Sequence record: MH051917
DNA: 64,000 nt
Strand: one strand, 5' to 3'
Origin: Enterobacteria phage vB_EcoM_IME341
The notes below the pieces were generated by a model. That model ran no database searches. It was not told where the DNA came from and worked only from the letters and a program-made list of their open reading frames with translations. The position numbers were made by a program, and so were the translations under genes. How positions within the stretch are numbered: the first letter of the stretch is position 1; each line of letters begins with the position of its first letter. This document shows, one piece after another, positions 2,883 to 55,890 of this stretch.

Positions 2883-3122
2883 ATGTGGTATTACGCTCCG
2901 ATGTCCGATAAGTCTAATGAACCGGTACGCATTACTCGTGCCAAGTTTAAAAAGATTTATGGCTTTGCTTATAAGAAGTCTGATTACGGTGTTCGTTTTG
3001 AAGATGCTCACTGTATCAATGACCCTTATGCAGAAGAAATTTCTAATGAGATAATTCCTATCGTTGAGAGTAATTCCAATGATATGTGGGAATTGCATAA
3101 CACTTACGTTGCCGAAATTTAA
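2883..3122 (+). CDS. hypothetical protein
   Basis: 79-aa ORF, SD GAGGAG upstream. Confidence 0.5.
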   Translation: MWYYAPMSDKSNEPVRITRAKFKKIYGFAYKKSDYGVRFEDAHCINDPYAEEISNEIIPIVESNSNDMWELHNTYVAEI

Positions 3123-9180: not shown

Positions 9181-9455
9181 TTGAAGATATTAAGGGTTAC
9201 AAACCACATACCGACGACAAAATCAGTAAAGTGAACGCGATTAAAGATGCTGAAGTTCGATTAGGGTTAATCTTTAAAGCCTTGGAAGAAGAATATGTTG
9301 AAGCCTTTACATGCTCGGGTGTTGACAAAATGAGTGATGAAGAATTCAACCTCACCCATGAACGCCTAGCCCAGATTCGTACGGCAATCGAACGCTTGAA
9401 AGAAGCAAGCATGTGGGCGTGTCGTTCCGTTTTCCAGCCCGAGGAAAAATACTGA
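9177..9455 (+). CDS. hypothetical helical protein (T4 vs-region position)
   Basis: 92-aa ORF, ATGA overlap; position corresponds to T4 vs.3-vs.5 region. Confidence 0.5.
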   Translation: MIEDIKGYKPHTDDKISKVNAIKDAEVRLGLIFKALEEEYVEAFTCSGVDKMSDEEFNLTHERLAQIRTAIERLKEASMWACRSVFQPEEKY

Positions 9456-9664
9456 TGAAAATTGAAAGTTTACAAGATTTCCAGCGTATCATTGGTGAAG
9501 CCTGTACCGGCTACCACAAATACTTGCTTGACGACCAAATGGCTTGTCTCGAAGAAGGTGAAGTACAGTATGCAGCCCAACGCCTTGAACAAGTGAAAGA
9601 GTTTTATCCTGTATTGGTAGAAATTTGTTCAGCTGCTGGAAAACTTACCCCATTCCAAGAATAA
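9455..9664 (+). CDS. hypothetical protein
   Basis: in-frame ATG 9455 overlapping previous stop. Confidence 0.45.
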   Translation: MKIESLQDFQRIIGEACTGYHKYLLDDQMACLEEGEVQYAAQRLEQVKEFYPVLVEICSAAGKLTPFQE

Positions 9665-9668
9665 AGCA

Positions 9669-9698
9669 GTTTACATCTCCTGTAGACATGATACTATA
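9669..9698 (+). promoter_or_regulatory. early promoter upstream of regB
   Basis: GTTTACA -35, TG-n-TACTAT -10; spacer pairs with downstream SD. Confidence 0.6.
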
Positions 9699-9725
9699 AA
9701 CCTATCAACTACAGGAGATTACAAA

Positions 9726-10184
9726 ATGTCAGAAATTAATTCAGAAGTATTCATCCGCCGCAACAAATTACGTCGTCAGTTCGAAACCGAATTCCGTGAA
9801 CTGAATGCGTCCATCAAAAAAGCCGCCATTAAGAGCGGTGTCCCAGCCTTCTTTATTAAGTACTCTAATCACTTGTTGGACCGTGCTATCCAACGTGAAA
9901 TCGACGAAAAATACGTTTTTGCTTTATTCAAGCAACTCCATAACCATGTTAAAGAAATCCACGAATTCTTAATCCAGGAACCTCTGCCTGATGTAGAATC
10001 CGAAATTGTCCCTGGTAAAGTGTATCGTCCATTGCGTCTCGAAATTACCGATAAAACCTTATGGCTAGGTATGACAGTAGACCGTAAACATCCTGATAAA
10101 GGATATTCCCTTAAATGTCGTATGGCATTTGTTAACTCTAAACGTTTAGAAGGTAAAACCAGCACTAAAGTAATCTATCTTTAA
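9726..10184 (+). CDS. regB: RegB site-specific endoribonuclease
   Basis: 152 aa; EVFIRRNKLRR...HLLDRAIQREIDE matches T4 RegB. Confidence 0.85.
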   Translation: MSEINSEVFIRRNKLRRQFETEFRELNASIKKAAIKSGVPAFFIKYSNHLLDRAIQREIDEKYVFALFKQLHNHVKEIHEFLIQEPLPDVESEIVPGKVYRPLRLEITDKTLWLGMTVDRKHPDKGYSLKCRMAFVNSKRLEGKTSTKVIYL

Positions 10185-10196
10185 TAATGAGGTCTC

Positions 10197-10736
10197 ATGA
10201 AAAAAGTATTAGCCACTTTACTATTGACAGTTAGTATGTCTGCCCATAGCGTAGAGCCTACTTTCAGTAATGAACAACTCGATAATTTACATTACGCGTA
10301 TGCTTTCGGTGAACAATACCAAAAGTCGGGAAAGTTCAAAGAAAACCCTAATCAAAAAGGATTAGGATATATCATGGCCGGATTACTATGGCAGGAATCA
10401 TCCGCCGGAATTAATCAAGGTTTAAATAAAGATAAGCACCATGCTTATGGCATGTTCCAAAATTACTTGCCTACGTTAAGAAGTCGTGTTCAACAGGTAG
10501 GTTGGAAGATGTCAGACAAAGAAATAATTCGTATGGTCCAAAAACGACAGAACAGTGCCTCTTGGGCCTACATTGAGCTGTCTTATTGGATTGATGTTCA
10601 CAAAGGTGACCTGAGAAAAGCGATTGCTTCTTATAATGCGGGCTGGAACGTCAAAGCAGGCAGTAAGTATGCTTCTGAAGTTCTAGAAAAGGCCAATTAC
10701 CTAAAATCTAAAAAGATGTTTGAGGCGGTATATTAA
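10197..10736 (+). CDS. secreted lytic-transglycosylase-like protein
   Basis: signal peptide MKKVLATLLLTVSMSAHS; LLWQESSAG SLT-like motif; T4 vs.1 position. Confidence 0.55.
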   Translation: MKKVLATLLLTVSMSAHSVEPTFSNEQLDNLHYAYAFGEQYQKSGKFKENPNQKGLGYIMAGLLWQESSAGINQGLNKDKHHAYGMFQNYLPTLRSRVQQVGWKMSDKEIIRMVQKRQNSASWAYIELSYWIDVHKGDLRKAIASYNAGWNVKAGSKYASEVLEKANYLKSKKMFEAVY

Positions 10737-11093
10737 ATGATTAAGCAGATGACTATAGCGCTTATGTTGATCGCTCCGGGAGTATTAGCGTCACAAGTTG
10801 ATGATAGCAATAATTCAATTGTTGAGTATGCTACCCGCACAGCAAAAGATTATTGTCATCCAAGTAATACTGAATGCGTTATCGAATTCAGTTCAAAAAT
10901 CACAGCGGCTTTTAAAGATGGACAGAACGACGTAGAGCATCGCAGAATGAAAGAGAAAACTCTTTCTAAAAGGTACGAGCAACGTCTAAACGTTACTGAA
11001 TGTGTTCCATCTGATAAAAAGTACAAAGAAATGTGTGCGTCTATGGTAGACAGACTCGTTGACTCATACAACCGAGGATTAAACTCTAAATGA
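10737..11093 (+). CDS. secreted Cys-containing protein (T4 vs position)
   Basis: signal peptide; 118 aa; position of T4 vs. Confidence 0.45.
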   Translation: MIKQMTIALMLIAPGVLASQVDDSNNSIVEYATRTAKDYCHPSNTECVIEFSSKITAAFKDGQNDVEHRRMKEKTLSKRYEQRLNVTECVPSDKKYKEMCASMVDRLVDSYNRGLNSK

Positions 11094-11557
11094 TTATTGA
11101 TTATATTAAGGGCGATATAGTCGCCCTGTTTCTTCAAGGTAATAATGTTGCACACGGGTGCAATTGTTTCCATACAATGGGTTCAGGTGTAGCCGGACAA
11201 TTGGCTAAGGCTTATCCGCCTATTCTCGCTATCGATAAAACCACTTATTTAGGTGGGGTAGAAAAACTTGGCACGTTTACCCAAGCCACAGGTAATAATG
11301 GCCAAATTTGCTATAATCTTTATACGCAATACGAACCTGGCCCTAATCTTGATTATGGTGCTTTAGTAAACTGTATGATAGAATTAAACCGTACCGCAAA
11401 GGGTCTTTTGTTTAAACCCAGAATTTATATTCCTCGCATCGGTTGTGGTATTGCTGGTGGTGATTGGGACAAGGTTTATCAATTGATTAATTTGTTTACT
11501 CCTGATATTAATTTAGTGGTGGTAGATTATGAAAGCCCATTACCCACATCCGTTTGA
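11090..11557 (+). CDS. macro-domain protein (ADP-ribose binding/processing)
   Basis: GDIV...HGCNCF...MGSGVAGQ and ...IPRIGCGIAGGDW match macrodomain motifs. Confidence 0.6.
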   Translation: MIIDYIKGDIVALFLQGNNVAHGCNCFHTMGSGVAGQLAKAYPPILAIDKTTYLGGVEKLGTFTQATGNNGQICYNLYTQYEPGPNLDYGALVNCMIELNRTAKGLLFKPRIYIPRIGCGIAGGDWDKVYQLINLFTPDINLVVVDYESPLPTSV

Positions 11558-11741
11558 CCCTAAAAACAAAGCGGAAATTATTCGACGCTGGACCGAAACC
11601 CGAGTAACCAAATGTCCTATAAAAAGTCAACACAACACCGATAAATGGTATATCGGTGAATACGTTGAATATACTTTTATAGATAAAAATAAACGTAAAC
11701 ATCATGTAGAAGAATATTGCTTAAAGGTGCAATGGCTATGA
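11529..11741 (+). CDS. hypothetical protein
   Basis: 70-aa ORF overlapping end of macro gene. Confidence 0.4.
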   Translation: MKAHYPHPFDPKNKAEIIRRWTETRVTKCPIKSQHNTDKWYIGEYVEYTFIDKNKRKHHVEEYCLKVQWL

Positions 11742-11923
11742 GTCTGAGTAAAGAACAGAAAGATAAATTGTTTGAGCTTATCCATGAGCTTTTGGATGAG
11801 CATACAGAAGCAAACGCCTTTTATGATGAATACGGTCCAATAGATGCCGAACATCAGGAAGAATTTGCCAATCGATTTGATGAGAAAGAAAATGAATTAA
11901 TAGCTTATGTAAATAGTCTTTAA
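11732..11923 (+). CDS. hypothetical acidic protein
   Basis: in-frame ATG 11732; 63 aa. Confidence 0.45.
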   Translation: MAMSLSKEQKDKLFELIHELLDEHTEANAFYDEYGPIDAEHQEEFANRFDEKENELIAYVNSL

Positions 11924-11932
11924 GAAGGTAAT

Positions 11933-12505
11933 ATGGCCCAACTTTATTTTCACTACGCAGCAATGAATTCCGGGAAGACCGCTTCATTGCTAACAGCCGC
12001 TCATAACTACAAAGAACGTGGTATGGGCGTACTTCTTTTAAAGCCTGCGATAGACAATAGAGAATCAAGCCATAGCATTTCGTCTCGTATAGGGATTAGC
12101 CAAGAGGCTAATGCAGTGACTCCAGATATGGACCTATACGAGTTCTATCGTTGGGCTGAATCTCAAAAAGATATCCACTGCGTGTTTGTGGATGAAGCAC
12201 AGTTCTTAGAACCAATACAGATAAAACAACTGGCAAAGATAGTAGACAATTATAATGTTCCAGTTATGTGCTATGGGCTAAGAACTGATTTTCAGGGTAA
12301 ACTGTTTCCTGGTTCTGCTGAATTACTCGCTACAGCAGATAAACTCGTTGAGTACAAAGGTGTGTGCCATTGTGGACGTAAAGCTACTATGACGGCTCGT
12401 ATCCAAGATGGTATCGCAATTAAGGACGGTGACCAAGTTTCTATAGGTGGCAACGATTCTTACGTGTCATTGTGCAGGAAGCACTGGATAGAAATAACGA
12501 GTTGA
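11933..12505 (+). CDS. tk: thymidine kinase
   Basis: MAQLYFHYAAMNSGKT P-loop start and C-terminal Cys cluster typical of Tk. Confidence 0.9.
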   Translation: MAQLYFHYAAMNSGKTASLLTAAHNYKERGMGVLLLKPAIDNRESSHSISSRIGISQEANAVTPDMDLYEFYRWAESQKDIHCVFVDEAQFLEPIQIKQLAKIVDNYNVPVMCYGLRTDFQGKLFPGSAELLATADKLVEYKGVCHCGRKATMTARIQDGIAIKDGDQVSIGGNDSYVSLCRKHWIEITS

Positions 12506-12512
12506 GGGTACT

Positions 12513-12791
12513 ATGGACCTAAATTCAAAGATTTTAATTCTAGCGTTCGCTGTGGCTATTTCTTATATTGTTCTTTCGCCTATCATGGATGATGTGGCTT
12601 ACAAAAGAGAGATAGAGGTTGTAGCAGCGACGTATAATGCTAATAATAAAGAATGCCCTAATAAAAATGGGATGGATTTAATTAAAGCGCATTATATGCT
12701 TTCCATTACCTCGCCTATACAGAGGAATTGGGTTGAATATAATTTTAACGACGTGTTCTATTCTTATTGTCGTAAGCTTAAAAAGCTATAA
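12513..12791 (+). CDS. hypothetical membrane protein
   Basis: 92 aa with N-terminal hydrophobic helix; T4 rI.1 position. Confidence 0.5.
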   Translation: MDLNSKILILAFAVAISYIVLSPIMDDVAYKREIEVVAATYNANNKECPNKNGMDLIKAHYMLSITSPIQRNWVEYNFNDVFYSYCRKLKKL

Positions 12792-52892: not shown

Positions 52893-53056
52893 CTATTAAA
52901 GAGGCCGAAGAACGTGCTAAAGAGGCATTGGATTTGCTTCTTAAAATCGGTAGTAAAATGATGGAAGAAAACGAGAAATACATCCAAGAAAATAAAATTC
53001 CGGATGGCCCTTTAGTAGGTAAACTAAGAAGAGGAAAACATAATGAAAGTCTATGA
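52889..53056 (+). CDS. hypothetical small protein
   Basis: 55 aa, ATGA overlap; not in ORF track. Confidence 0.35.
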
Positions 53057-53534
53057 ACTAGAATTCTTTGTTCGTGATTCTGCCGGACAAACACGTCCTT
53101 ATGATGCTGCGGCGTGTCTTATCCTTGTCGATAATGGTACGAATTCTATAACCCAGTTAGAAACACGATTAAAAGATATTAAGCCGCCAGAAAATATTCT
53201 AATGAAGGCATATCATAATAAAAATGTTGATGTTGCTGAGGGTTGTCCTTTTAGCCTGGCTGAAGCATTACATATCAAGGGTTATCGTTATCCGGCAGAC
53301 CCATACGCCGAAGGAACCATGGATATTTTCTATAAGGATAGAGATAAAATGGCAAATGAGCGTCTTAAAGGACGTACTTATCTGATTTCCACCACCGAAG
53401 ACCTTACTGAAGTCGAACGTCAGATTTGGAAACACTTTGATATTGGACTGCGCTTTACCATGACTGAAGACGCTATTTGTGATGCTAAGGCGCGAGCTCG
53501 TATGTACGGTTACGGTCCTATCGGTGGTTACTAA
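53043..53534 (+). CDS. hypothetical protein
   Basis: 163-aa ORF. Confidence 0.5.
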
Positions 53535-53722
53535 TGGACTTATTTGATATGTTTGTCATTCCGGACCCTGAGCCTGAAACAACTCAGGAGCCGCCTGTTG
53601 ACCTCGTCAACGAACTTGATATGATTATACAGAAGCATGGTTTTAAGTTGCCTAAAGATGTTCTTAGTGACCTAGCTTCTTATTACTTAGACCCTCCTCC
53701 ATGGGCTCCTTGGGTAAAATAA
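53534..53722 (+). CDS. hypothetical acidic protein
   Basis: 62-aa ORF. Confidence 0.45.
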   Translation: MDLFDMFVIPDPEPETTQEPPVDLVNELDMIIQKHGFKLPKDVLSDLASYYLDPPPWAPWVK

Positions 53723-53750
53723 AGTTTTACACCTCCTCCCTTCATGTTAT
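53722..53750 (+). promoter_or_regulatory. early promoter upstream of modB-like gene
   Basis: GTTTTACA -35, TG-n-TATAAT -10; followed by SD-sequestering hairpin. Confidence 0.55.
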
Positions 53751-53777
53751 AATGACCTCTAAATCACTGGAGGTCAT

Positions 53778-54347
53778 ATGAACATCGAACAAAAATGTCT
53801 TTATCAAGACCGAATCAATTCCAAATTCTCAAAACACGAACAGAATCTTTTAGAAAAATGTCTAGATGCTAAAAAAGACCCTAACTTCCATTACGACCTT
53901 GATAAGCTAGTTCGTAAGCATGTTACTTCAGCGGTTCCGGTAGAGCTTTATCGTGGGATTACCCCTATGGAACTTGAGCAACTTGAAGTTCTTTCTGTTG
54001 GGTGTCAGTGGTCACCGGGTCGTGTTACTTCTTTTAGTACGCAATACTCTCAGGCTCGTCAGTTCGCAGGGGCATGGGAATACGGAACCAAAACCATTTT
54101 AAGTCTCAGGAATGCTCCATTCATTTTTGACTACTATAACCATGCTATCGACCTTGTTCTTGCAGGGAATGTGGATGAGCTTGAAATAGATGAAACCCGT
54201 ATAGACCTCTACGATATGGTCGAAACTGAATGTGAGTTCATGGTCTCTAGCCTATCACGATTTGAGATTGTTGAAATCGAAACCATCAAAAGGGACCCGT
54301 ACGAAATCGAGTACAAAACAATTCATTTAAAAATGTTGGATTTTTAG
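53778..54347 (+). CDS. modB: ADP-ribosyltransferase, ModB-like
   Basis: R-S-E ART signature (LYRG, SFSTQYSQ, E-x-E); paralog of next gene; T4 modB position. Confidence 0.55.
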   Translation: MNIEQKCLYQDRINSKFSKHEQNLLEKCLDAKKDPNFHYDLDKLVRKHVTSAVPVELYRGITPMELEQLEVLSVGCQWSPGRVTSFSTQYSQARQFAGAWEYGTKTILSLRNAPFIFDYYNHAIDLVLAGNVDELEIDETRIDLYDMVETECEFMVSSLSRFEIVEIETIKRDPYEIEYKTIHLKMLDF

Positions 54348-54377
54348 TTTACAGGCAAGGAGGCTTGTGGTACTATC
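54347..54377 (+). promoter_or_regulatory. early promoter upstream of modA-like gene
   Basis: GTTTACA -35 and TG-n-TACTAT -10. Confidence 0.55.
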
Positions 54378-54401
54378 TTTCTATCAACTGAGGAGAATAA
54401 T

Positions 54402-55016
54402 ATGTTATATCCAAGCCATAAATTAGCAGAATTTATCAACAATGCCAAATGCGATGATTTCCGTGAGAATACTCAGATAGAAATTGATGAGGTGTATTCT
54501 GATTTAGAACAGAGTACCCTCTGGCAGTGCATGGAAAATAAACCAGATTGTATCCAGGAAACTCTGAACAAAATCATCCGTAAGAACCTGACTTCTGTAG
54601 TGCCTGATAAGCTCTATCGCGGCATATCTAAAAAGACTATGAAGTATCTAGAGTCCACAATGTGTGTAGGTGCGGTAATTGAATTCGACCGCGTGATGAG
54701 CTTCTCTAAAGACTTCAACGTGGCAAGGAATTTCGCATCTTATAACTTCTACGGCACATTTAATATCTTTTGTATTAATGATGCACCATTTGTGTACAAT
54801 TATCAGGAAGAAATCTTTAAAATGTTATGTGCCGCGCCCCCTGAAGAGTTCCCAGGCGCATTTCCTGAATCTACCCGTGTAGCAAACTTACAATTAATAA
54901 ATGATGAAGATGAGATGATGTTCCCTGCGGGAACTACGCTGCGCGTAGACTCTATTGAGAGAAATCCTAAATGGAATAATTACACCATTTGGAATCTTTC
55001 CGTTCTTTCTTACTGA
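54402..55016 (+). CDS. modA: ADP-ribosyltransferase, ModA-like
   Basis: R-S-E ART signature (LYRG, SFSKDF, E-x-E); T4 modA position. Confidence 0.55.
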   Translation: MLYPSHKLAEFINNAKCDDFRENTQIEIDEVYSDLEQSTLWQCMENKPDCIQETLNKIIRKNLTSVVPDKLYRGISKKTMKYLESTMCVGAVIEFDRVMSFSKDFNVARNFASYNFYGTFNIFCINDAPFVYNYQEEIFKMLCAAPPEEFPGAFPESTRVANLQLINDEDEMMFPAGTTLRVDSIERNPKWNNYTIWNLSVLSY

Positions 55017-55082
55017 ACCGCCAGGTTTAATTGAAAGGCAAAGTCCTTGATTCATTATACCGTCGAAAATTTAAAGCAAAAA

Positions 55083-55112
55083 AGTGTTTACTTTATCGAG
55101 CAACGTGATACT
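55083..55112 (+). promoter_or_regulatory. early promoter
   Basis: GTTTAC -35, TG-n-TACTAT -10, GAACCTATCAA downstream. Confidence 0.6.
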
Positions 55113-55155
55113 ATAGAACCTATCAACTAATCGTCCGTAAGATGAGAAAAATATT

Positions 55156-55890
55156 ATGACCACTGAATTTGATTTAAAAGTTTACAAACGTCGCGAACAC
55201 ACTAAAGCCTCTGCCAAAAAACGGGGTAAGGACTTTAACCTATCTAGCAAATACGTTCGTAGACTTCTTGAACAAAAAGTGTGTGCATATTCAGGCGAGC
55301 GCTTTGATGAGAATTCGGATAGTGATAAGATTTCGTTTGAACGCTTTAACAACGATATAGGTTATATCGAAGGTAATGTAATCCCAGTTAAAGTTAAGTA
55401 CAACTGGTTGCGCGCTGATTTGTCTTTAGATGAATTGAAACGTGTACAGACTCGTTTAGCGTCCCGTATTTCAGGTAGTTCTAAAATGCCTAATAGTTTT
55501 AAAGTTACCCCAGATAATTATTATAAAATTCGTAAAATCGTTAAAAATATTAAAGATACCCAAAGAGGTCTTAAAAAGCGTGAAAAACGTCTTAAGGACC
55601 TTATTAAATCAGGAGCTACTGATAAGACCCCTTCTGTTATCGCGGTTAAAGCTCGTATCCACGGTTCTAACGCTTCGATTGGTATGATGGAAAAGGGTCT
55701 TAAATCTTTAATTGGTGGGCCTGATTGGCGCGTGAAGTTTAAATTGTCTGAAGCAGAAACGCGTTACGATATGTATGATAAAATTATTCAAGGTCTGGAG
55801 CGTTTAGAACACCTTTCTTTTATTGACAAATTGAAGTTGAAAAAAGGTCTTCCGCTGAATGCTTCAATTTTTTCACTGATTAGAGGTTAA
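55156..55890 (+). CDS. Srd-position protein with degenerate HNH-like segment
   Basis: 244 aa between modA and dda (T4 srd slot); identity not established by sequence. Confidence 0.4.
   Translation: MTTEFDLKVYKRREHTKASAKKRGKDFNLSSKYVRRLLEQKVCAYSGERFDENSDSDKISFERFNNDIGYIEGNVIPVKVKYNWLRADLSLDELKRVQTRLASRISGSSKMPNSFKVTPDNYYKIRKIVKNIKDTQRGLKKREKRLKDLIKSGATDKTPSVIAVKARIHGSNASIGMMEKGLKSLIGGPDWRVKFKLSEAETRYDMYDKIIQGLERLEHLSFIDKLKLKKGLPLNASIFSLIRG

Follow-up and report, generated by a model that had tools for sequence, protein, structure and literature searches.

Gene order and protein sequence identify the macrodomain gene upstream of tk in Enterobacteria phage vB_EcoM_IME341 (sequence record MH051917; the window is the whole stretch of 64,000 nucleotides analysed) as the Dhakavirus orthologue of T4 tk.4 (adfM). 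Its product is probably an orphan antidote to bacterial DarTG2, one that would hydrolyse thymidine-ADP-ribose, likely by chemistry of the SCO6735 type. The identity of the gene and the anti-DarTG2 role of its T4 counterpart were already known; the subclass and the residue pattern are the additions of this analysis. Judged by sequence, Tk.4 proteins form a family of stand-alone macrodomains of the Gln type (SCO6735/BT1257-like), in which H22, N25, Q80, and G120 are invariant.

The open reading frame is real: the list of reading frames and the sequence itself agree exactly on the bounds of a plus-strand frame of 155 codons, from ATG to TGA (Table 1). All four motifs quoted for its product in the initial annotation were recovered, as G8-D9-I10-V11, H22-G23-C24-N25-C26-F27, M30-G31-S32-G33-V34-A35-G36-Q37, and I117-G118-C119-G120-I121-A122-G123-G124-D125-W126. 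The tk.4 ATG (11090-11092) and the TGA stop of vs (11091-11093) overlap as ATGA, which implies that tk.4 is cotranscribed with vs and possibly translationally coupled to it. An identical cgaggatt...ATGA arrangement is found at the vs/tk.4 junction of T4, and the X04567 annotation of T4 has a potential rRNA binding site where this phage has the Shine–Dalgarno-like element. The location upstream of tk given in the initial annotation holds, as tk.4 ends 376 nt before the thymidine kinase gene (11933-12505; PHROG 592, E=3e-87). Between 9400 and 12600, 7 promoter-like sites were found compared with 8.9 expected in shuffled sequence, and no promoter was assigned; across the whole window, ARAGORN and an Rfam scan at the gathering threshold returned zero RNA genes. 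The hairpin within the 5′ part of the gene is the only notable terminator-like site in the same 9400-12600 interval. It is conserved, with compensatory changes, in part of the Tk.4 family and occurs in the T4, Krischvirus, and Vequintavirus orthologues.

Table 1. Coordinates of the tk.4/adfM orthologue and of sites in and beside it (positions are those of the window).
Feature	Position	Strand	Remarks
tk.4/adfM orthologue, single-domain macrodomain protein	11090..11557	+	155 aa, 16.9 kDa, pI 5.5; coordinates include the stop codon
Shine–Dalgarno-like GAGGA	11074..11078	+	11 nt 5′ of the tk.4 ATG; direct sequence reading
8-bp GC-rich hairpin AGGGCGAT-ATA-GTCGCCCT, then T-rich tract	11109..11127	+	in tk.4 codons 7-13
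Codons for H22-G23-C24-N25	11153..11164	+	align with SCO6735 H24-V25-C26-N27
Codon for Q80	11327..11329	+	aligned position of TARG1 catalytic Lys84, DarG Lys80, and SCO6735 essential Gln85
Codons for G118-C-G120-I-A122-G-G124 (predicted glycine-rich phosphate-binding loop)	11441..11461	+	

The source phage is a T-even Dhakavirus (IME08-like), and the 155-aa protein is 100% identical to IME08 Tk.4. It shares 53.5% identity with T4 Tk.4 over the full 155 aa of both (E=2e-62), and both proteins belong to PHROG 335 (E=6e-67 for the window protein). This phage and T4 share the order regB, vs.1, vs, tk.4, tk.3, tk.2-like, tk, the neighbours here matching PHROGs 1323, 600, 1256, 2008, 653, and 592 in T4 order. 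In both phages, the gene lies between vs and tk.3, overlaps vs as ATGA, carries the 5′ hairpin, and encodes the H-G-C-N, T-Q, and G-x-G active-site motifs. The two differ in genus (Tequatrovirus for T4), in 46% of residues, and in the glycine-rich loop, which reads GAGIGKG in T4 and GCGIAGG here; the anti-DarTG2 phenotype has been demonstrated for the T4 protein only. That phenotype comes from a 2025 preprint in which transposon screening of T4 on a DarTG2 host gave tk.4 as the single significant gene, and clean deletion of tk.4 sensitized T4 to DarTG2, the conditions of sensitivity being 30 C and slow growth; its authors renamed the gene adfM (anti-DarT factor Macrodomain) and wrote that enzymatic removal "seems likely" (bioRxiv 10.1101/2025.11.20.689424). 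A further anti-DarTG2 factor had been predicted, as T4 lacking adfA and adfN was still resistant (PMC11825919). The T4 genetics thus match one of the options raised in the initial annotation, a counter-defence against DarT-like DNA ADP-ribosylation.

The macrodomain assignment was supported by both sequence and structure prediction. Pfam PF01661 (Macro) matched over model positions 2-117 of 118 with E=5.9e-8, its 33.1 bits exceeding the gathering score of 22. Sequence searches of the PDB returned BT1257, SCO6735, Poa1p, Mycobacterium tuberculosis DarG, and TARG1, with BT1257 the best, and profile E-values against PDB macrodomains (TARG1, Poa1p, BT1257, and the DarG proteins of M. tuberculosis and T. 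aquaticus) ranged from 4e-20 to 5e-10; titles of the matched PDB entries name Poa1p residues His23, Ser30, and Phe152. An AlphaFold2 model of the protein (mean pLDDT 94.4, pTM 0.89) has a predicted three-layer alpha/beta/alpha macro fold. Foldseek gave 144 PDB matches at E<=0.001, of which the top 50 listed are macrodomains except for two designed hydrolase variants (ranks 22 and 30); the best, TARG1, Poa1p, BT1257, and the DarG macrodomains of M. tuberculosis and T. aquaticus, scored at probability 1.00 and TM 0.73-0.77. The initial annotation had made its assignment depend on the macro fold and on conserved ADP-ribose-binding residues. The model has the fold, and the protein contains the motifs predicted to bind ADP-ribose, G31-S-G-V-A35, G118-C-G-I-A-G-G124, and N25, all of them conserved. 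That annotation had not recognized the gene as tk.4 and had left the subclass to HHpred or Foldseek; the structural matches and residue alignments point to a Gln-type, SCO6735/BT1257-like, stand-alone macrodomain.

Across 66 homologues, H22, G23, N25, Q80, G118, and G120 do not vary. On alignment with the SCO6735 structure, the chain of which carries a 20-residue tag offset that we accounted for in the residue mapping, H22, N25, G118, and G120 fall on SCO6735 His24, Asn27, Gly126, and Gly128, so that the equivalents of His24, Asn27, and Gly128 are all present; Q80 corresponds to Gln85 by the equivalence of that residue to the TARG1/DarG Lys given in PMC9411070. The TARG1 catalytic dyad, which we take to be Lys84/Asp125 in agreement with the residues named in PMC9411070, is replaced by Q80/A122. 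Profile alignments place Q80 opposite both TARG1 Lys84 and the BT1257 Gln; its equivalence to the DarG Lys rests on these alignments together with the structural alignment described in PMC9411070. The H22, G23, N25, and Q80 equivalents are kept in 80/80 bacterial relatives, where the invariance of the pattern residues is partly circular, the 80 loci having been fetched with the patterns AHGCNC and GxGxAGGxW, and Q80 lies outside the pattern.

Both in vitro and in cells, SCO6735 clears the thymidine-ADP-ribose that DarT makes, an activity lost in the Q85A, N27S, and G128E mutants; Gln85 is the equivalent of the TARG1/DarG Lys, Asn27 locks this catalytic Gln, and the backbone of Val25 positions the proposed catalytic water (PMC9411070). 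At the Val25 position, the Tk.4 family has the invariant Gly23 rather than Val or Ile. Because the role proposed for Val25 is exerted through the backbone, Gly at this position appears compatible with, and does not exclude, an SCO6735-type mechanism. A long basic mobile loop such as that bearing SCO6735 Lys89 and Lys94 was not found; Q80 is followed by YEPGPNLDYG, which contains no Lys.

SCO6735 (Streptomyces coelicolor, PDB 5E3B) and BT1257 (Bacteroides, 2FG1/2AFC) are, like the window protein, stand-alone Gln-type macrodomains of the ALC1-like class, with Gln at the TARG1/DarG Lys position and no partner DarT gene, and the functionally important His, Asn, and Gly-loop residues of SCO6735 are conserved here. 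They differ in being cellular rather than phage-encoded and in sharing about 25% identity or less with the window protein, and SCO6735 has Val25 in place of Gly23, a longer post-Gln loop, and a strongly basic rather than acidic character. Among the structural matches, human TARG1/OARD1 (PDB 4J5R/4J5S) ranks first (TM 0.77, rmsd 2.6); it also removes thymidine-linked ADP-ribose from DNA (PMC9411070), differing in its Lys84/Asp125 dyad.

The DarG antitoxin of DarTG2 (PDB 5M3I, 5M3E, and 7OMU; NF048014) has the macrodomain fold in common with the window protein (TM ~0.73), and thymidine-linked ADP-ribose on ssDNA would be the expected substrate of both. DarG was also the only PADLOC family matched (PDLC02990, positions 3-142 of 329, E=5.8e-6). 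Membership in the DarG family was rejected: the NF048014 cut-off is 250 bits, and the protein scored 20.2, matching at positions 3-138 of 338, the N-terminal macro part only. Unlike DarG, the window protein lacks both the C-terminal DarT-binding domain and the catalytic Lys, and no darT gene adjoins its own. A tblastn search of the window with one Pseudomonas aeruginosa DarT2 query, of limited sensitivity, found no darT (best E=7.9), and no second macrodomain was found in the window. Applied to the 4 kb on either side of the 80 nearest bacterial relatives, the same single-query search, equally limited in sensitivity, again found no darT (best E=2.2).

A second phage macrodomain, PhiKZ gp104 AdfM, is likewise a stand-alone protein countering DarTG2 (the window protein by T4 orthology) (Cell Rep 2026, PMC13309987). 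In vitro, it strips ssDNA of the ADP-ribose added by DarT2; it also rescues DarT2 toxicity, and its N23A mutant is less active (PMC13309987). N23 aligns with N25 here. Close kinship between the two was rejected at about 20% identity and a pairwise E of 0.006. PhiKZ gp104, which is imported into a phage nucleus, is of the Lys type, with a DarG-like P-T-K motif in contrast to T-Q in the Tk.4 family. Near the catalytic position, BLAST and HMM align PhiKZ and Tk.4 with an offset of 1-2 residues from each other, and the putative Lys-to-Gln equivalence therefore rests on the T-K/T-Q motif. The differences between the two proteins suggest that the Tk.4 and PhiKZ lineages were recruited independently. 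An extended version of this reading, which we put forward only tentatively, is that T-even and PhiKZ-like phages separately recruited macrodomains against one defence, Tk.4 deriving from free-living bacterial "genome-protecting" Gln-type macrodomains and not from DarG; it would act by a lysine-independent, water-mediated route, maybe on wider substrates (protein- or RNA-linked ADP-ribose) and against further ADP-ribosyltransferase defences.

For the DarTG2 antidote, we propose the following course of events. DarT2, which ADP-ribosylates thymidines within TNTC motifs of ssDNA, would act on the phage DNA during infection and thereby block replication. The phage macrodomain would hold the ADP-ribose through the glycine-rich loops G31-A35 and G118-G124 and hydrolyse the thymine–ribose bond, restoring normal DNA. 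In this reaction, invariant Q80, fixed by N25, would position the distal ribose in place of the catalytic lysine, and a backbone-bound water would initiate cleavage. By analogy with the characterized enzymes, the chemistry is most likely of the SCO6735 type rather than of the DarG/TARG1 type. We infer that the Dhakavirus orthologue has the anti-DarTG2 phenotype, that its protection is enzymatic and Gln-type in mechanism, and that the Tk.4 family removes thymidine-ADP-ribose; the searchable literature yielded no in vitro biochemistry of any Tk.4-type protein.

Several features count against the antidote proposal. Identity to the tested T4 protein is 54%; the DarG/TARG1 Lys and the TARG1 Asp are missing; Gly aligns with SCO6735 Val25; and the post-Q80 loop lacks the Lys89 and Lys94 that aid SCO6735 in DNA binding. 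The protein is also mildly acidic (pI 5.5), yet the DNA-active PhiKZ AdfM is acidic as well (pI 5.05). T-even DNA contains modified cytosines, which might alter the targeting of TNTC by DarT2. SCO6735 is also able to bind DarT and thereby inhibit the toxin (PMC9411070), and protection by Tk.4 therefore need not be purely catalytic.

Relatives of the protein occur in 2731 of 50,697 phage records and extend beyond the T-even group to Vequintavirinae, Felixounavirus, Pseudomonas and Vibrio phages, and Bacillus PBS1. This very wide spread in virulent phages, together with bacterial relatives that adjoin no DarT, would fit a general role in repair or as an antidote. The protein might thus be a broad-spectrum ADP-ribose eraser, acting on proteins (Glu/Asp esters) or on RNA/DNA phosphate ends besides or instead of DarT2-modified DNA and countering other host ADP-ribosyltransferase defences or toxins, a reading we consider unlikely. 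T-even phages remain sensitive to CmdTAC, an mRNA ADP-ribosyltransferase system, which the macrodomain therefore evidently does not neutralize; the published account of CmdTAC describes a robust defence against T-even phages. The closest characterized relatives do have several substrates, SCO6735 and TARG1 each acting on both proteins and thymidine-ADP-ribose DNA (PMC9411070). In PMC11833690, the discussion attributes to SCO6735 an activity on RNA phosphate ends, but the results of the same paper show it inactive on 5′-phosphate- and 2′-OH-linked ADP-ribosylated nucleic acids. The reported T4 screens, moreover, gave tk.4 with DarTG2 only (bioRxiv 10.1101/2025.11.20.689424).

The two ADP-ribosyltransferase paralogues listed in the initial annotation are real: 53778-54347 (E=6e-37) and 54402-55016 (E=1e-44) both match PHROG 832 "RNA polymerase ADP-ribosylase" and are flanked by Mrh and Srd, as are ModA and ModB in T4. 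An eraser or reader partner of these transferases was the first option of that annotation; in its favour are the presence of ModA-like and ModB-like genes in the same window and the fact that writer–eraser pairs are common in ADP-ribosylation biology. We find it very improbable that the macrodomain serves the phage's own ModA/ModB (and Alt, encoded elsewhere) by erasing or reading the marks they leave on host proteins. A distance of 42 kb separates the genes, and the macrodomain occurs in many non-T-even phages and in bacteria and therefore does not track ModA/ModB/Alt. Alt, ModA, and ModB make arginine-N-glycosidic ADP-ribose, a linkage reversed by ARH/DraG-fold enzymes, and we know of no cleavage of arginine-linked ADP-ribose by ALC1/TARG1-class macrodomains. 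The T4 tk.4 knockout is, in addition, viable, the gene being conditionally essential only with DarTG2 (bioRxiv 10.1101/2025.11.20.689424).

Hardly any weight falls on a Poa1p-like ADP-ribose-1′′-phosphate phosphatase, clearing the by-product of KptA/Tpt1 2′-phosphotransferase RNA repair or a small ADP-ribose derivative, immune signals included: Poa1p is among the best matches by overall similarity only (E=1.4e-14 in sequence, TM 0.76 in structure), and the public annotations that say phosphatase inherit the label by homology, with yeast Poa1p rather than experiment as the source. T4 RNA repair (Pnkp and Rnl1) makes ordinary 3′-5′ junctions with no 2′-phosphate, and we therefore know of no source of the substrate in it; the sole phenotype on record for T4 tk.4 is DarTG2 sensitivity (bioRxiv 10.1101/2025.11.20.689424).

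DarTG systems are widespread anti-phage defences, against which T-even phages stack AdfA, AdfN (a NADAR enzyme, against DarT1), and AdfM (against DarT2). Public labels for the relatives are mostly "phosphatase" or "hypothetical protein", the former being used by PHROG 335 and GenBank, and identification as AdfM corrects uninformative labels on most of the 2,731 phage records with a relative. Judging from its residues, T4-type AdfM should act without the DarG catalytic lysine. If this is true, the family would offer a compact model for DNA de-ADP-ribosylation by the proposed SCO6735-type route. Dhakavirus phages are predicted to be DarTG2-resistant, which is relevant to the choice of therapeutic phages.

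The gene at 11090-11557 is the orthologue of T4 tk.4. Its product is 100% identical to the protein labelled tk.4 in Escherichia phage IME08 (Dhakavirus, Tevenvirinae), with which the 5-kb region around the gene shares 97.9% identity, and it is 54% identical to T4 Tk.4 over the full length (E=2e-62). The neighboring genes belong to the same PHROGs as their T4 counterparts, and, as in T4, tk.4 begins within an ATGA that it shares with the stop codon of vs, with a GAGGA ahead of it. Sites in a promoter scan around tk.4 were no commoner than by chance, so no dedicated promoter was assigned. The tk.3 start overlaps the final 29 nt of tk.4 in a different reading frame, compared with only 4 nt in T4; BCU-2 (classified as Tequatrovirus; Tk.4 76% identical) likewise has a 29-nt overlap. 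Between tk.3 and tk, the window has one gene of tk.2/tk.1 type versus two tandem paralogues in T4. T4 carries a tRNA cluster. The whole window (1-64000) contains zero tRNA genes and zero Rfam families at the gathering threshold, and therefore no T4-like tRNA cluster.

Features of the tk.4 region
Feature	Coordinates	Strand	Description
regB	9726-10184		same PHROG as T4 counterpart
vs.1	10197-10736		same PHROG as T4 counterpart
vs	10737-11093		same PHROG as T4 counterpart
tk.4	11090-11557	+	ATG-to-TGA ORF, 155 codons; same PHROG as T4 counterpart
Hairpin in tk.4	11109-11127		8-bp GC-rich, AGGGCGAT-ATA-GTCGCCCT; codons 7-13 (K-G-D-I-V-A-L)
tk.3	11529-11741		same PHROG as T4 counterpart
tk.2/tk.1-like small gene	11717-11923		PHROG 653, same as T4 counterpart
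tk	11933-12505		same PHROG as T4 counterpart

The initial annotation had called a macrodomain from sequence motifs, all of which are present in the 155-aa protein (GDIV, residues 8-11; HGCNCF, 22-27; MGSGVAGQ, 30-37; IGCGIAGGDW, 117-126). The call is confirmed by a nearly full-length match to Pfam Macro PF01661 (33.1 bits; gathering score 22; E=5.9e-8), by membership in PHROG 335 (E=6e-67), and by an AlphaFold2 model built from 66 homologues (mean pLDDT 94.4, pTM 0.89). The top solved-structure matches of this model all belong to the ALC1-like class of macrodomains: human TARG1 (TM 0.77), Poa1p, BT1257, and DarG from M. tuberculosis and T. aquaticus (macrodomain part).

Genetic evidence for function comes from T4. 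When a T4 transposon library was grown on DarTG2-expressing cells, only tk.4 emerged as a significant hit, and its clean knockout was sensitized to this defense (bioRxiv 10.1101/2025.11.20.689424, a November 2025 preprint). Pointing out a likeness to the macrodomain of M. tuberculosis DarG, the authors gave the gene its new name, adfM (anti-DarT factor Macrodomain); in their view it "seems likely" that ADP-ribose is removed enzymatically from DNA (bioRxiv 10.1101/2025.11.20.689424). The window gene is an orthologue of this previously described anti-defense factor, and the counter-defense against DarT that the initial annotation listed among three options proved right. Literature searches found no biochemistry on any Tk.4-type protein.

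The active site was compared with characterized stand-alone enzymes. In profile alignments, the invariant Q80 of Tk.4 aligns with the catalytic Lys84 of TARG1, and A122 with Asp125; BT1257, the best PDB sequence match (E=4e-20), likewise has Gln at the Lys84 position. Structurally, Gln85 of Streptomyces coelicolor SCO6735 takes the place of TARG1 Lys84 and DarG Lys80 (PMC9411070). SCO6735, which lacks the Lys/Asp residues, efficiently removes DarT-made thymidine-ADP-ribose in vitro and in cells, loses activity in the Q85A, N27S, and G128E mutants, and is proposed to begin catalysis with a backbone-positioned water at Val25 (PMC9411070). After correction for the 20-residue tag of the SCO6735 PDB chain, its H24, V25, N27, G126, and G128 correspond to Tk.4 H22, G23, N25, G118, and G120, all invariant in a 66-sequence family alignment. 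Q80 and these conserved residues make the Tk.4 family a Gln-type, SCO6735/BT1257-like macrodomain rather than a Lys-type DarG/TARG1 enzyme; by this pattern, thymidine-linked ADP-ribose would be removed without a lysine, as in SCO6735. Unlike SCO6735, Tk.4 has Gly in place of Val25, carries no Lys in the loop that follows the Gln, and is mildly acidic (pI 5.5); the DNA-active PhiKZ AdfM is acidic too.

PhiKZ gp104 was independently also named AdfM (Cell Reports 2026, PMC13309987). In vitro, it strips a TNTC oligonucleotide of the ADP-ribose added by DarT2, and its N23A mutant is impaired (PMC13309987). gp104 and the window protein share only about 20% identity (pairwise E=0.006), and the T-Q of Tk.4 faces a DarG-like P-T-K motif in gp104, at a column whose exact placement shifts by 1-2 residues between alignment methods. 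Given these differences, the macrodomain fold seems to have been recruited separately in the T4-type and PhiKZ lineages. Assignment of Tk.4 as DarG itself was rejected: it scored 20 bits against a 250-bit cut-off for the NCBIfam DarG equivalog, over the N-terminal 138 of 338 model positions, and matched the PADLOC DarG model in the macro part only. A search of the 64-kb window with a single DarT2 query found no DarT.

The substrate range of Tk.4 is possibly broader than thymidine-linked ADP-ribose. Since SCO6735 and TARG1 are multi-substrate enzymes (PMC9411070), Tk.4 may also act as an eraser on proteins or RNA, although DarTG2 sensitivity is the only phenotype on record. Partnership with the phage's own transferases, also proposed initially, was not borne out. 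The two ADP-ribosyltransferase genes (53778-54347 and 54402-55016) are genuine ModA/ModB homologues (189 and 204 aa), both matching PHROG 832 ('RNA polymerase ADP-ribosylase') and lying between Mrh and Srd in the T4 order (53043-55890). They are, however, 42 kb from tk.4, and the macrodomain family extends beyond T-even phages to many phages and bacteria. Moreover, ModA and ModB produce arginine-linked ADP-ribose, a linkage that macrodomains of the Tk.4 class are not known to reverse. A Poa1p-like phosphatase acting on ADP-ribose-1''-phosphate is suggested by a database label, but the label is inherited from Poa1p homology, and T4 infection has no known source of this compound.

The start of tk.4 also contains a hairpin, followed by a T-rich tail to 11137, that was picked up by a terminator scan. 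The same hairpin occurs in T4 (3020-3038 of the locus used for comparison), other Tequatrovirus and Dhakavirus phages, Krischvirus W115, and one Vequintavirus. Compensatory changes convert AAG/CTG to AAA/TTR in some lineages, both synonymous, and GGC/GCC to GGA/TCC (Ala to Ser). Equally good stems were rare in synonymous-codon shuffles (p=0.004-0.03 per sequence). Covariation across 26 unselected orthologues, a set of related sequences from one of which the structure was derived, scored 0.206 versus 0.131 in shuffles (0/500 reached 0.206) and at most 0.124 in slid controls. Orthologues from Karamvirus, Slopekvirus, and Aeromonas phages lack the hairpin, as do bacterial homologues and orthologues in which residue 12 is Lys or Glu. 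Candidate roles for this structure between vs and tk.4 are those of an attenuator or terminator, an mRNA end, an mRNA stability element, or a translation element.

Of 50,697 phage records, 2,731 contain a relative of this protein; among them are T4-like phages that infect many different hosts, Vequintavirinae, Felixounavirus, Pseudomonas and Vibrio phages, and Bacillus PBS1. When 1.84 billion cluster representatives were scanned exhaustively with HMMER, 5,378 clusters matched at E<=1e-3, of which 1,572 reached E<=1e-10; among the matches listed, most proteins are ~150 aa. A minority of the relatives have additional fused domains: one protein of 247 aa, from outside the window, matches Pfam PF22327 and PF00293 (NUDIX), a fusion that would tie ADP-ribose release to ADP-ribose breakdown, and others reach 350 and 546 aa. 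The 80 nearest bacterial loci (Rhodobacteraceae, Verrucomicrobia, Planctomycetota, Desulfobacterota, and others) are 35-43% identical to Tk.4 and mostly stand-alone ORFs of ~150 aa. Gln is present in 80/80, retrieval having used motif patterns with HGCN and Gly-loop residues, not Q80, and a single-query search detected no DarT2 within 4 kb of any of them. Because the nearest relatives are stand-alone, uniformly carry Gln, and lack a detectable DarT2 nearby, the data suggest that phage tk.4 derives from a bacterial macrodomain that stands alone and not from a DarG antitoxin.
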